Under the pieces are notes generated by a model. It saw only the letters and a program-made list of their open reading frames with translations, did no database searches and was not told where the DNA came from. Shown piece by piece: positions 1 through 57,312 of a DNA stretch of 64,000 bases (within the stretch, counting starts at the first letter, position 1; each line of letters starts with the position of its first letter). A program made the position numbers and the translations under genes. This stretch comes from Candidatus Asgardarchaeum abyssi (GTDB taxonomy: Archaea > Asgardarchaeota > Asgardarchaeia > Asgardarchaeales > Asgardarchaeaceae): the NCBI GenBank assembly GCA_040225955.1, contig JBECUL010000007.1:1-64000 (forward strand), given 5' to 3'.

Positions 1-201
1 ATCGGCGGTGAAGAGGATGTTTGGTGAGACGGTGCGGGCACACAAGTGGGACCAGATGGTCAAGGAGGTGATATTCCGTTTCATATTTTATAACGTTGTT
101 ATATCGATATGAAAAGTTGTTGATGTGAGGCTCGTGGGAACCTGAGTTGAGTTCGAATGTGAAGTCATCTCAGACTCAAACTTTATTTGTTCAACAAAGC
201 A
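1..201 (+). mobile_element. Right end of an IS5-family (IS903-like) insertion sequence, cut by the window start
   Basis: Frame +2 encodes a transposase-like C-terminus. Bases 187-201 (TTGTTCAACAAAGCA) reverse-complement to TGCTTTGTTGAACAA, close to the IS903 terminal repeat GGCTTTGTTGAATAA. The segment is more GC-rich than its flank. Confidence 0.85.
2..112 (+). CDS. IS5-family DDE transposase, C-terminal fragment (5' part outside the window)
   Basis: My translation: SAVKRMFGETVRAHKWDQMVKEVIFRFIFYNVVISI*. This fits the IS5-type 'FSxxKRxFGE...E...YN' C-terminus. Not in the ORF track. Confidence 0.8.
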   Translation, partial: SAVKRMFGETVRAHKWDQMVKEVIFRFIFYNVVISI

Positions 202-209
202 TCACTTTA

Positions 210-269
210 GAAAAATTTAAATAGAAGTTCTAAATACAAAATCGTGGAATTCTAATTAATTTGGAGGTG
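210..269 (+). promoter_or_regulatory. BRE/TATA promoter and Shine-Dalgarno of the thermosome gene
   Basis: GAAAAA (210-215), TTTAAATA (216-223), GGAGGTG (263-269), ATG at 275. Confidence 0.7.
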
Positions 270-274
270 TAACT

Positions 275-1921
275 ATGGCCGTACATCCTGCGCAATTGGG
301 TGGAATACCAGTGCTTATCTTAAAAGAAGGTACTAAAAGAACAACTGGACGAGACGCTATGAAAAATAATATTATGGCCGCTAGGGCAATTGCAGAAGCC
401 ATAAGAACATCACTAGGTCCACATGGTATGGATAAAATGCTTGTTGATAGCTTTGGAGACGTAACTATAACAAATGACGGGCGAGCAATTCTAGATGAAA
501 TAGAGGTTCAGCATCCTGCAGCAAAGATGATGGTACAAGTTGCAAAGACTCAAGACGAGGAGGTTGGTGATGGTACAACAACAGCTGTGGTGTTAGCTGG
601 AGAACTACTAAAGAATGCTGAAGAGCTTCTTGACCAGGATATTCATCCAAGTGTTATAGTTGATGGTTACAGAGCCGCTACGGATCAAGCATTAAAACTA
701 TTAAATGATATAGCAATTGATGCTGACATAGAGGATGAAGAACTTCTTAAAAATGTAGCAGCTACTTCGATGATGTCCAAGGTTGTTTCTGGTGCGAAAG
801 ATAAGCTTGCAGAAATCGCAGTAAAGGCAATAAAAGCTGTTGTTACCGAAGTGGACGGAAAACGTGTTGTTGATCTAGACGATGTCAAGGTTGAGAAAAA
901 ACATGGTGGCAGCATAGAAGATACTCAATTGATATATGGTATTGTGCTTGACAAAGAAGTGGTCCATCCAGGAATGCCAAAACGTGTGGAAAATGCAAAA
1001 ATTGCACTCATCCAAGCGTCATTAGAGGTCGAAAAAACAGAGTTTGACGCAAAGTTGAACATAACTTCTCCAGAGCAGATAGAGAAGTTCATAAAAGCTG
1101 AAGAAAATATGTTAAAAGAAATGGTTGAAAAAATTGCTGCAACTGGTGCTAATGTTGTATTTTGTCAGAAAGGTATCGATGATATAGCACAACATTTCCT
1201 AGCCAAAAAGGGAATCCTAGCGGTAAGAAGAGTTAAAAAGAGCGACATGGAGAAATTGGCAAAGGCTACTGGTGCAAGGATAATTACAAACCTTGATGAT
1301 ATGAGTGAAAAAGATCTAGGTGAAGCAAAACTTGTAGAAGAAAGAAAAGTTGCTGACGATTACATGGTTTTCATTGAGGGTTGTAAGAATCCAAGATCGG
1401 TTACAATTCTTGTGCGAGGCGGTACAGAATTAATAGTAGATGAAGTTGAGCGATCGTTACACGATGCTCTTTCAGTGGTCAGAAATATCGTAGTTAATCC
1501 TAAAGTCGTAGCCGGTGGCGGTGCTCCTGAGATATACTTAGCACTGCAACTAAGAAAATTCGCAGAGAAAGTAGGTGGGAAAGAACAATTAGCTGTTGAG
1601 AAATACGCTGAAGCATTAGAAGTGATTCCCAGAACCTTAGCTGAAAATGCTGGATTGGATCCAATTGATATTATTGCTACATTAAGGGCTGAGCATGACA
1701 AGGGTCACTATTGGATGGGCGTGAATGGATTTGAAGGCAAAATTGATGACATGCGAAAACTTAATGTATATGAACCATTAGTAGTCAAACAACAAGCATT
1801 GAAATCCGCAAGTGAAGCGGCTATAATGATCTTGAGAATCGATGATGTAATAGCCGCTTCAGAGCTTGGCAAAGAAAAGGAAAAAGAAGGCGGTGAAGGT
1901 GGCTTCTCAGGAGAAGAGTAA
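275..1921 (+). CDS. ths: Thermosome subunit (group II chaperonin)
   Basis: Motifs [28 protein letters not shown] and ILRIDD; 548 aa. Confidence 0.98.
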
Positions 1922-53921: not shown

Positions 53922-53942
53922 ACAAATGTAATCCTATTTACC

Positions 53943-54084
53943 TGCTTTGTTGACCAAAACATTGTTATATTGAAGTTATGAAATCGGAATTTAGAGCAAG
54001 TTATTATGATATCGCATATAACACATTTATCAGCGATACTATTATAACATTACGCAACCATTCATTGAATTGTTCAACAAAGCA
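53943..54084. mobile_element. 142-bp MITE with IS903-like TIRs and an 8-bp target-site duplication
   Basis: Left end TGCTTTGTTGACCAA, right end TTGTTCAACAAAGCA (14/15 inverted match). Flanked by TATTTACC at 53935-53942 and 54085-54092. Right TIR is identical to 187-201. Confidence 0.9.
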
Positions 54085-54093
54085 TATTTACCC

Positions 54094-54106
54094 AAAAATT
54101 TATAAT
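54094..54106 (+). promoter_or_regulatory. BRE/TATA upstream of the Roadblock gene
   Basis: AAAAA followed by TTTATAAT, ~45 nt before ATG 54152. Confidence 0.6.
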
Positions 54107-54151
54107 TAACCATCTAATAAATTTTGGTTAATGTCCTAAGAGGGAAATAAT

Positions 54152-54526
54152 ATGCCATTAGAATTTGATAATCTTCAGCGCGCTCTTGAAGATTTTGTAT
54201 ATACATATGGTTTTCTAGCAAGCGTGGTTTCAACTAGTGATGGACTTGTAGTGGCTTCCGCTATTAAAGAAGGTCTGGATCAAAATCTTGCTGCAGCTTT
54301 ATCCGCACTGGTCGATCAGACTATTGATAGAGTAAAAAATGATCTTAAATTAGGTAATGTTAAACACTTTTTAATTGAAGCAGAATTAGGAATTTTAATT
54401 TTTAAGAAGATAATCATTAATGAAGAACCTATATTATTAACAGTTCTAGCTCCCAAAAGTATGCGCTACTTTAAAAGAAAATTAAATAGAATTTCTAAAT
54501 CTATTATTAACTTTCTATCGCCATAG
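54152..54526 (+). CDS. Roadblock/LC7 (MglB-like) protein
   Basis: SVVSTSDGLVVAS...LAAALSAL...LGNVKHFLIEAELG. Confidence 0.88.
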   Translation: MPLEFDNLQRALEDFVYTYGFLASVVSTSDGLVVASAIKEGLDQNLAAALSALVDQTIDRVKNDLKLGNVKHFLIEAELGILIFKKIIINEEPILLTVLAPKSMRYFKRKLNRISKSIINFLSP

Positions 54527-54535
54527 TGATGGATA

Positions 54536-55285
54536 ATGATTTTTTCTCCGAGATTGAATCTTTTCTTTAAATTATTATTTTCTGAGAGTAGTAGTAAGGA
54601 TTATCCGTTGTTTCTTTCGTTTGAAGTTCTTTCTAAATTTTTCGATGAGGATGACTTAAAGAAAATTAAAAATGACATAGAAACGATTTCTGATGGTCGT
54701 ATTAGAGCATCCCTACGTGACGATGGTTTTTATCTATTTTATCCTTTCTTTGATATAGTATTTCTTCTTCTTGAGAAAGGCTATCCCTACACTGAGTTAT
54801 CATATATGCTTGACTGGCGCGATTTCGAAAGATATGTAGCTAATATTTTTATGAAGATTGGTTTTGAAACAGTTCTAAACTTTCATTTTTCCTATAACCA
54901 AGTTAGAAGAGAGATTGATATTCTTGCAAAAATAGATAATACATTGTTATGCATTGATGCTAAGCATTGGAAAAAAGGCGTGTTGGAATCAAAATTAAAA
55001 ATTCTTGCGACTCAACAAAAAGATCGCTGTTCACTTTTAGCTGAATATATTAGTAAGTGTCGTAAAAATATAGATTCTATATTTTCATCAAATTATGTAC
55101 ACTCTAAATTACATATTTTCCCCTTAATTATAACTTTATATAGGACGAAATATTGTATAATTGAAAAGATTCCCATAGTCCCTGCAAATCTTTTAAAGCA
55201 ATTTCCCACTTGGTTTGATATTAATAAATATTCTCTTTGGCATATATCCATAATGATTAATAAGAAATCTAAAAATAACTGGTGA
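54536..55285 (+). CDS. Mrr-like/NERD PD-(D/E)XK endonuclease-domain protein
   Basis: LDWRDFERYVA..F...G, REIDILA, CIDAKHW. Confidence 0.8.
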   Translation: MIFSPRLNLFFKLLFSESSSKDYPLFLSFEVLSKFFDEDDLKKIKNDIETISDGRIRASLRDDGFYLFYPFFDIVFLLLEKGYPYTELSYMLDWRDFERYVANIFMKIGFETVLNFHFSYNQVRREIDILAKIDNTLLCIDAKHWKKGVLESKLKILATQQKDRCSLLAEYISKCRKNIDSIFSSNYVHSKLHIFPLIITLYRTKYCIIEKIPIVPANLLKQFPTWFDINKYSLWHISIMINKKSKNNW

Positions 55286-55881
55286 TTATGATGGCAAATA
55301 TTGGTGATTTAGAAATTCAGCTTGGACGAATGCCAGTAAAAATTGCTGCTATCATGTCAGAAGCTAAAACCCAAATATATAATGCTATGAGAGTGCTTTT
55401 AAAAGAATATACATCTAGCCAAGAAAATCTGTACCTTCAAGAAGAGCAAATAGATAAATGTCAACATTTCTTAGATAGCATCATCGAGATTATAAATAAA
55501 ACATTAGATAATACTACAATTCAGATAGTTACTTTAGTCCAAAGTTCTAATAGCAGAGTGATAGAAATTTTTAATCAACTATCAAGTTATAAATCGGTTG
55601 AAGAGTTATTTGAGAAATTAAATAGAGAGATAAAAGAATGCAAAATTGAAAACGAGAGGCTAAGGGGACTTCTCATTCAAAAATCTGACTTTTTTAAAAT
55701 ATTATCTATAGTTGAGGAGAGAAAGAGTTTAACAAAATCAGAGTTGTTGACCATTACAGGCTTGTCTAATAAGAAAATATCTAGAGTTTTAAAAGAACTA
55801 GAAGGAGAAGGGTATATTAAAATAGATAAATCACGCAGACCTTACCGTATTATATTTTTAAAGTCTCCTTGGAGGATTTAG
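55282..55881 (+). CDS. Coiled-coil protein with C-terminal winged HTH
   Basis: LTKSELLTITGLSNKKISRVLKELEGEGYIK. Confidence 0.75.
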   Translation: MIMMANIGDLEIQLGRMPVKIAAIMSEAKTQIYNAMRVLLKEYTSSQENLYLQEEQIDKCQHFLDSIIEIINKTLDNTTIQIVTLVQSSNSRVIEIFNQLSSYKSVEELFEKLNREIKECKIENERLRGLLIQKSDFFKILSIVEERKSLTKSELLTITGLSNKKISRVLKELEGEGYIKIDKSRRPYRIIFLKSPWRI

Positions 55882-55882
55882 T

Positions 55883-56785
55883 ATGAAAATAGGTATTATA
55901 TATAAGGTCCTTGATTTTAAGGAAACTCCCTGGCCTATAGAACAACTTAAGAAATCAATATTTTGTCAAGGTCACACGCCTCTTATTATTGACATTAATA
56001 GAATATACTCCTATATTGGATTTGAAAAACATGGTGTTTGGTATGGCGAAATAAACTTATCAAAAGAACTTTCTGGTGGGTTTTTGAGATCCTTTGGGCG
56101 TGGAAGTTGTGATGCTATAACGTATAGAATTAGTGCCATGGAACAATTAGAAGTAGATGGTGTTTACTTAATGAACTCTACATATAATTTTAGAAAGGCT
56201 AAGGATAAATATGCAGCTCTCTTTCATCTATACTCTCATGGAATTCCTGTTCCTAGGACTTTTATTACAAGAGATTTTGATTCTGCAATATGTGCTATCC
56301 AGTCAGAGTTTAAAGACTTTGTTGTAAAACCTCTTATTGGTTCTCGTGGATTAGGGAGTCTTCATATTTCAAATTTTGACCTAGCTTATGAGGCAATAAA
56401 AACTCTAGATAAACTTAATAAGGTATTCTACATTCAAGAGTTTATTGACAAGCCGGAACGTGACATCCGAGTGTTAGTATTAGGCGACCAAGTTGTAAAC
56501 GGTATGTATCGTGTTGCATCAAGTGACTCTTGGAAAACTAACATTTCCCTGGGGGCTGAACCTAAACCCCTAAAAATTACAGCAGAGCTTGAAGAATTAG
56601 CCATAAAAGCAACAAAAATTTTAGGTTTGGATTATGCAGGTGTTGATATTATTGAAACAAAAAATAGTGGTTATCTAGTACTTGAAGTTAATGCGGCTCC
56701 ATCGTGGGAGGGATTACAAAAAGTAACCCCCTTTTCTATTTCGGATAAAATTGTTAATTACTTGTTAGATAAATTAAAAAGATAA
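55883..56785 (+). CDS. RimK-family ATP-grasp amino-acid ligase
   Basis: DK, IPVPRT, VVKPLIGSRGLG, QEFI, DIRV, WKTN, GVD, LEVN. Confidence 0.9.
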   Translation: MKIGIIYKVLDFKETPWPIEQLKKSIFCQGHTPLIIDINRIYSYIGFEKHGVWYGEINLSKELSGGFLRSFGRGSCDAITYRISAMEQLEVDGVYLMNSTYNFRKAKDKYAALFHLYSHGIPVPRTFITRDFDSAICAIQSEFKDFVVKPLIGSRGLGSLHISNFDLAYEAIKTLDKLNKVFYIQEFIDKPERDIRVLVLGDQVVNGMYRVASSDSWKTNISLGAEPKPLKITAELEELAIKATKILGLDYAGVDIIETKNSGYLVLEVNAAPSWEGLQKVTPFSISDKIVNYLLDKLKR

Positions 56786-56826
56786 ATCTAATATATTCTA
56801 GCAATACACATTTCACAATAGGTGGT

Positions 56827-57312
56827 TTGATGTCTAAAAAAATCAGAATCAGAGGGATTCTCTCACGGAAAAGAAAGGTTGCACTGTTCGTAGATGGTCC
56901 AAACATTTTAAGAAAAGACTTTAATATTCGTCTTGAAGATCTATTGGAGTTAGCTTCTAAATATGGAAAGGTTAGCATTGCCAAGGTTTATCTTAATCCT
57001 CATGCTCCGAAAAAACTTACTGAAGCTATTTCAAATAGCGGATTAACTCCTGAAATCGTTACAAGCGATATTCATATAAAAATGGCTGTTGATGCAATTT
57101 CTTTGATCCTAAAAGGGAAAATTGACATATTAACTATTGCTAGTAGGCATGCAAGATGTGTACCTATATTAAGACGAGCGAAAGAGCTTGGTATTGAGAC
57201 TGTTGTTATTGGTTTTAATCCAGGATTTAGTGTAGCACTTAAGAACACAGCAGATCATTCTGAAGAATTAAAGATATCTCCCCCCTCATCTCATAACATC
57301 CATCAGAAGTAA
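56827..57312 (+). CDS. NYN/PIN-domain protein (TIGR00288-like) with an altered active site
   Basis: ALFVDGPNI, AKELG.ETVVIG..PGFS.AL...AD; SDIH and RHARC where DxD and RDADF are usual. Confidence 0.8.
   Translation: MMSKKIRIRGILSRKRKVALFVDGPNILRKDFNIRLEDLLELASKYGKVSIAKVYLNPHAPKKLTEAISNSGLTPEIVTSDIHIKMAVDAISLILKGKIDILTIASRHARCVPILRRAKELGIETVVIGFNPGFSVALKNTADHSEELKISPPSSHNIHQK

Follow-up and report, generated by a model that had tools for sequence, protein, structure and literature searches.

In the genome of Candidatus Asgardarchaeum abyssi, insertion sequences (IS) of the IS5 family and the MITEs that share their ends are inserted at a base-precise distance upstream of BRE-TATA promoters, and the same register recurs in other Asgard genomes, in metagenomes and in Saccharolobus. 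The targeting of promoter edges is real, widespread and precise; the mechanism proposed for it is probable but unproven. Little has been written on how archaeal insertion sequences choose their targets. A literature search found no report of promoter-aimed insertion in archaea, with the proviso that older papers on Sulfolobus elements may mention it, and the terms "promoter" and "target site" are both absent from the main text of a 2026 pan-archaeal IS survey (PMC13343696). New here are the Asgard hosts and a named element from a model species, together with pairs of empty and filled sites, a bacterial control, a register anchored at the proximal cut, and several element families that converge, with internal negative controls.

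Two related elements upstream of intact genes

The window is the whole stretch of DNA analysed, positions 1 to 64,000 of contig JBECUL010000007.1. The features that concern us are:

1 to 201, plus strand: right end of an IS5-family IS (IS903 group, ISC1058-like), truncated by the contig start
2 to 112, plus strand: 3' end of the transposase gene, final 36 codons and stop codon (35/35 identity to P0123)
181 to 201, plus strand: right terminal inverted repeat of the IS, terminating in CAACAAAGCA (192-201)
202 to 209, plus strand: putative 8-bp target-site duplication TCACTTTA, its partner copy absent from the assembly
210 to 223, plus strand: thermosome-gene promoter, BRE (GAAAAA) and TATA box TTTAAATA, 11.2 bits with the tRNA-promoter matrix
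275 to 1921, plus strand: thermosome (Cpn60/TCP1) gene, intact (PF00118, E 1e-197)
53935 to 53942, plus strand: left copy of the 8-bp duplication TATTTACC
53943 to 54084, no strand assigned: 142-bp non-autonomous MITE with ends as in the IS (end at 54075-54084)
54085 to 54092, plus strand: right copy of the 8-bp duplication TATTTACC
54093 to 54106, plus strand: BRE (CAAAAA) and TATA box TTTATAAT, 11.1 bits with the tRNA-promoter matrix
54152 to 54526, plus strand: Roadblock/LC7-like gene, intact, heading a co-directional cluster (PF03259, E 4.5e-4, below the curated cut-off)

The first-pass annotation placed the IS end at 201 with a TATA box at 216, and the MITE end at 54084 with a TATA box at 54099, each facing a plus-strand gene, and these positions are correct. 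It described both flanks as 9 nt, A5 and a TATA box. The order is TCACTTTAG, AAAAA and TTTAAATA (216-223) after the IS, and TATTTACCC, AAAAA and TTTATAAT (54099-54106) after the MITE. The constant spacing stands, but the true parse is an 8-bp target duplication, a 6-bp BRE and the TATA box; the 9-nt "spacers" differ because their first 8 nt are the target-site duplication. The first base of the TATA box lies 59 nt before the thermosome ATG (216 to 275) and 53 nt before the Roadblock/LC7-like ATG (54099 to 54152). The cluster behind the MITE (54152-57312) encodes Roadblock/LC7-like, Mrr-like nuclease domain, winged-helix, RimK-type ATP-grasp and NYN-domain proteins.

The two elements were also proposed to be related, and they share the IS5 family, the IS903 group and 11-bp ends. 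As judged from sequence, both are ordinary, ISC1058-like members of the IS903 group. Four more near-identical pieces of the IS at 1-201 lie on other contigs, and full-length copies are found in other assemblies. The matching full-length transposase, P0123, belongs to a cluster with full-length members in other assemblies. It is a single DDE transposase of 299 aa that matches PF01609 and PF13737 and scores 263 bits against the IS5 model NF033579 (cut-off 140), as expected of the IS903 group, and its D119, D195 and E260 are invariant. In the profile search IS5 models match, and none of the IS256, ISLre2 or ISKra4 models does. The predicted fold (pLDDT 94) is without an extra domain, and a fold search returns generic DDE matches only (ISCth4, intasomes), at TM 0.44 or less. 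The terminal repeat, TGCTTTGTTG, agrees with the IS903-type GGCTTTGTTG at 9/10 positions, again as the group requires. The MITE is one by definition: it is 142 bp long and non-coding, has 16 copies in the genome at 93-100% identity (IS ends number about ten), shares its 11-bp ends with the IS and is flanked by an 8-bp duplication. The inverted repeat of the copy in the window is perfect over 11 bp and imperfect over 22 (18/22). The duplication is 8 bp in 14/15 two-sided MITE copies, 9 bp in one, and also 8 bp at two split IS copies; because of these, the duplication at 202-209 is taken to be 8 bp.

A bacterial host for this archaeal transposase branch was sought and none was established; the one record labelled "Anaerolineae" is a 1.7-kb contig that may be mis-binned. 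Almost no members of the archaeal element group occur in the virus collections searched. The transposase of a record titled "Methanosarcinales" (L011/G302) groups with one from Woesearchaeota, and the order of this record is made up of genomes near 1 Mb, so the label looks wrong; many matches to a degenerate end pattern searched across the order of G302 are probably due to chance and were excluded. At C13:11801-13100 (L001) is a distinct DDE_Tnp_1 element, found as a single copy, whose ends resemble GAGATCTTGCC and whose coding region is split over two frames.

A single-base register at promoters

The Asgardarchaeum assembly consists of 189 contigs at 34% GC (66% AT) with 7.8% contamination. 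In keeping with an Asgard host, its TFB shares 83% identity with that of a "Ca. Asgardarchaeia archaeon". Promoters were scored with a 16-column matrix trained on 34 tRNA upstream regions, from which element-flanked sites had been excluded. The tRNA set was chosen because divergent upstream regions of protein genes had yielded too diffuse a motif de novo. The motif captured is BRE-TATA, mostly 36-46 nt 5' of mature tRNAs. At 41 element ends the score has a sole peak at +15, where 18/41 reach 4 bits or more; at +14, +16 and +17 the counts are 3, 3 and 2, and at any other offset at most one. The two-sided MITE insertions score at least 4 bits at exactly +15 in 12 of 15 cases (80%). The background is 0.95% of intergenic sites, or 2.3% of sites with an AT content of 85% or more, and P is about 1e-17 or smaller. 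The fixed TATA spacing suggested by the two copies in the window thus holds for most of the other two-sided copies. From +18 to +44 the profile is flat, showing that the elements ignore further A-rich positions in these intergenic regions. IS copies interrupt short-read assemblies, and a part of the junction pairs is chimeric.

A register of this kind might arise if insertion were random and only harmless copies persisted, or by chance in AT-rich DNA, and the surviving copies are indeed nearly all intergenic in a genome rich in AT. However, positions farther upstream would be equally harmless and yet are empty, and the AT-matched control yields 2.3% against the 80% observed. Moreover, the motif is also found in GC-rich hosts, and the same empty sites have been independently filled elsewhere (below). 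We regard this explanation as very improbable, and survivor bias alone is rejected as incompatible with a single-base peak.

Checking the flanks in related genomes, as the first-pass annotation advised, bears the register out. With the matrix unchanged, the same peak appears in other Asgard genomes (34/94 ends at 2 bits or more), and elements from metagenomes have the same register. In Saccharolobus, ISC1058 and the MITE SM3 generate a 9-bp duplication and the peak is at +16 (22/66 ends). The 9-bp events elsewhere also shift to +16, namely 3/3 in metagenomes and the one in the Asgardarchaeum genome. Since 8 bp goes with +15 and 9 bp with +16, what stays constant is a distance of 6 bp between the TATA box and the edge of the duplication nearer to the promoter. 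The related genomes are only partly independent; identical flanks were merged.

When both sides of an insertion are considered, the motif, where present, is almost always on one side only. Among 82 paired insertions it is on one side in 69, on both in 1 and on neither in 12, where a symmetric model expects 40, 15 and 26, respectively (P 1e-10); the distal side is near background. In the other Asgard, Saccharolobus and metagenome sets these paired counts omit pairs lacking a matching duplication, which are probable assembly chimeras. Orientation of the element is free, with the left or the right end toward the motif in a ratio of 40:31. The insertions without the motif, about 15% of the pairs, are commoner in GC-rich hosts and among Methanothrix-type copies, the matrix having come from an AT-rich genome. 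In GC-rich hosts the motif stands out on the GC-rich background. The pooled consensus, R-W-A-A-W-N followed by Y-T-T-W-W-A-W-A, agrees with the archaeal BRE (RRAAA) and TATA box (WTTTAAAW) (PMC6640164), the BRE being directly followed by the TATA box as in an archaeal core promoter. Two near-invariant As (66/70 each) lie 3-4 bp outside the duplication. An A4 tract is absent in 32/70 targets, and a pure A-tract preference is rejected on that count.

Several observations bear on whether the targets are promoters. In the Asgardarchaeum genome three element copies precede tRNA genes (Pro, Gly and Ala). tRNA promoters make up 5/24 targets, where sequence alone would predict 1.5-4.5% (P 3e-5 to 4e-3), an enrichment that is partly circular because targets went into the matrix used for weighting. 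The tRNA-Val, tRNA-Ser and L7Ae-operon promoters are empty in the Asgardarchaeum genome and hold a full IS at the identical register in other assemblies, both copies of the duplication being visible in two of them; the tRNA-Val and tRNA-Ser promoters were within the training set of the matrix. From these empty and filled pairs it follows that the motif predates insertion. Intergenic targets lie 30-130 nt 5' of a same-strand gene in 12/16 cases vs 32% of equal-scoring intergenic matches (P 5e-4), by gene calls that are crude; at least one of the "misses" has a short ORF overlooked by the caller. In S. solfataricus about 69% of mRNAs are leaderless (PMC5316973). The prevalence of such transcripts predicts a start codon 26-34 nt past the first base of the TATA box, and a long ORF starts there on 11/28 motif sides vs 2/31 others (P 0.004). 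Judged by gene positions and by this start-codon proxy, most targets are shown to be placed as real promoters would be. Insertion just upstream of the BRE with promoter and gene left intact, as first proposed from the two elements, is thus borne out by four independent data sets, by the empty and filled pairs, and by the S. solfataricus geometry.

One IS, split over contigs C29:26699 and C52:13769 (duplication GTAATAGA), interrupts an ORF at an antisense BRE-TATA-like match. At C9:27014 / L048 a recurrent hot spot holds a MITE in the Asgardarchaeum genome and a full IS in another assembly. Stacked insertions of the same or different families, 7-9 bp apart, occur at C22:201-210, C22:17288-17297, C119:4799-4807 and L367; such an arrangement would be expected if one promoter edge were hit repeatedly. 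Among the tRNA genes of this genome, the ARAGORN calls of tRNA-SeC (C10:5384-5478) and "tRNA-Stop" (C46:15459-15596) may be miscalled intron-containing tRNAs.

What defines the landing site

The register, its one-sidedness, its independence of orientation and its anchoring to the proximal cut are shown by the above counts. We propose that an archaeal branch of the IS903 group, with ISC1058-like DDE transposases, mobilises the IS and its MITEs. Insertion would place the promoter-proximal edge of the duplication 6 bp 5' of the first base of the TATA box, flush with the upstream edge of the BRE. The landing site would be defined by the promoter bound by TBP and TFB, either through protein contact or through adjacent bent, protein-bounded DNA, and an ancestral preference for A-rich DNA just outside the duplication would happen to suit the BRE. 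The benefit would be a safe harbour, in which the core promoter and the gene are unharmed and upstream regulator sites are displaced. We infer that the TBP-TFB-bound promoter probably sets the landing site, because the motif is one-sided, promoters and tRNA genes are enriched over equal-scoring sites, bacterial IS903 lacks the behavior, and several families converge on the motif. Counted against this mechanism are a transposase without an extra domain, the roughly 15% of pairs that lack the motif, and the one IS inside a gene at an antisense match. This last case does not separate the models, because archaea often have antisense promoters that carry BRE-TATA (PMC6640164). A structure prediction of the transposase with the TFB core and TBP scored 0.00, which counts neither way.

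Alternatively, the transposase may itself recognise, on one flank, a sequence or DNA shape that resembles BRE-TATA, extending the preference of IS903 with no help from a host protein. The bias to promoters would then follow from promoters carrying the sequence and from purging of coding insertions. IS903 does read 5 bp of flank, as seen again in the IS903 ends that we analysed, and the near-invariant As of the archaeal targets sit where those of IS903 do. Reading of flanking bases would thus be a family trait, which counts against a need for TBP and TFB. The insertion at a coding-region match and the transposase without a targeting domain also fit direct recognition. However, the motif is strictly one-sided in spite of free element orientation, promoter-placed and tRNA sites are enriched relative to intergenic sites of equal score, and recognition by the transposase would have had to evolve repeatedly and independently in families with differing ends and duplications. 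We therefore consider direct recognition unlikely, both as the source of the register and as the source of the promoter bias, but still a contender.

Convergence is seen among the other repeat families of the same genome. The CAGTAC-end family (CAGTACTTCCGCA ends), with 5-bp duplications and MITEs of about 140 bp, has BRE-TATA at +15 in 17/49 ends. The GAGCAC-end family (GAGCACTTGTAAAAA ends; e.g. C38:21107 and C18:1-99) has it at +16 in 10/19 ends. In an IS1-like family (GGTAACAT, GGTAAC ends), with MITEs of 97-99 bp, duplications of 7-8 bp and an N-terminal zinc-ribbon and HTH, it is at +17 to +19 in 14/36 ends, two of these docking sites being promoters within another repeat. The GGCACT family shows the motif weakly at +22/23. 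Examples are:

C14:33475-33614 and C7:64196 (the latter just beyond the window end): CAGTAC-end family
C10:53262-53360 and C16:1-439 (L469): IS1-like family

The CAGTAC and GAGCAC families are called unrelated by their ends and duplication length only; a search for the transposases of these two and of the GGCACT family found none. No peak is seen in six further end sets of this genome, among them the two ends of an IS605-like repeat. The peakless sets serve as negative controls, and the docking families are evidence of convergence, with at least two other families docking at offsets of their own. A repeat of ~247 bp in roughly 15 copies (e.g. C3:45169-45414 and C9:36868-37114), presumably IS200/IS605-derived as judged by its ends, shows no docking at promoters at those ends; a BRE-TATA-like site within its copies has been hit twice by the IS1-like family.

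In every docking family the duplication is centred about 10.5-14 bp before the TATA box. Such agreement among several families could also reflect passive accessibility, that is, insertion into open or bent DNA bordering chromatin-free promoters, with the base-level register resulting merely from a weak A-rich preference that snaps onto the BRE. The presence of the register both in histone-bearing hosts and in Sulfolobales would fit this. However, accessible DNA should have attracted the six end sets that show no enrichment, and A-rich positions elsewhere in these intergenic regions should not have stayed unused, so that passive accessibility is improbable on either count. Under the mechanism that we prefer, the TBP-TFB complex might be a shared landing pad, at which several unrelated DDE families dock at their own distances. 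One of these families would be the ISC1058-like IS5 branch, which spans Asgard, Bathyarchaeia, Sulfolobales and further archaeal hosts. We hold this generalization tentatively, at a little under an even chance.

If insertion follows a base-precise rule, it would become clear how archaeal genomes rich in IS can bear their load. Such a rule predicts that upstream regulator sites are severed while the core promoter is spared, and element ends could serve as promoter markers in uncultured archaea. Genetic tools exist for S. solfataricus, as does an in vitro transcription system that uses TBP and TFB. The mechanism is directly testable there, because ISC1058 and SM3 obey the rule in this tractable species.

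Comparison with known systems

Among named elements, the closest relative found is ISC1058 from Saccharolobus/Sulfolobus, an IS5-family element that mobilises the MITE SM3 (PMC3718332). The terminal 10 bp are near-identical, and the transposase has the same length of 299 aa and matches the same NCBIfam model, but at 34% identity ISC1058 is a relative and not an isoform. ISC1058 and SM3 dock at BRE-TATA in the same way, as computed here, with a 9-bp duplication instead of the 8 bp of Asgardarchaeum.

Bacterial IS903, also of the IS5 family but farther removed than ISC1058, has a transposase with PF01609 and PF13737 (25-31% identity), ends of GGCTTTGTTG as against TGCTTTGTTG, and, in common with the Asgardarchaeum element, an A-rich preference just outside the duplication. 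Its duplication is 9 bp whereas that of the Asgardarchaeum MITE is mostly 8 bp, so the latter is not IS903 itself. In a quick, midpoint-rooted transposase tree, IS903 lies beyond a 99-supported branch from the archaeal elements. The IS903 target is the symmetric WTTYA-N9-TRAAW (PMC2577343), unlike the one-sided BRE-TATA of Asgardarchaeum, where the opposite side is near background. Bacterial IS903 ends from virus contigs have only the published short, symmetric A-rich flank, with a TATA core at 1/94 ends, and their hosts are without TBP and TFB.

[quoted passage not shown] TnGBS/ISLre2 (p-MULT 3) and the ISKra4 group, which have Mutator-like (IS256-related) DDE transposases, insert 15-17 bp 5' of the -35 box of sigma-A promoters, and p-MULT 3 insertion is oriented (PMC3942029). 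ISKra4-group elements with matched ends insert in both orientations, as the Asgardarchaeum elements do. The behavior is the same, but the transposase and the promoter type differ, and the Asgardarchaeum elements are not members of these groups. The sole mention of archaea in that study is an AT-rich duplicated motif for ISH6 (PMC3942029).

The first-pass annotation drew a parallel with yeast Ty3, which is a loose one. Ty3 lands downstream of TFIIIB, 2-3 bp 5' of the start site, in a chromodomain-dependent manner (doi 10.1101/2021.07.27.453949). The likeness is in integration at promoters with base precision, which in Ty3 is set by TBP and a TFIIB-family factor, and in a leaning to tRNA genes. 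The parallel breaks down in its geometry: the archaeal elements insert upstream of the BRE, outside the interval from the TBP site to the start site. Ty3 is also an LTR retrotransposon confined to Pol III genes, and its chromodomain, like a C-terminal domain, is absent from the Asgardarchaeum transposase. The bacterial TnGBS/ISLre2/ISKra4 elements are a closer precedent than Ty3. The landing pad, if true, would be an archaeal counterpart of integration tethered to basal transcription factors, in which a minimal transposase manages with no targeting domain. Between the sigma-A-anchored integration of bacteria and the TFIIIB-anchored integration of yeast, it would supply the archaeal case that is missing.
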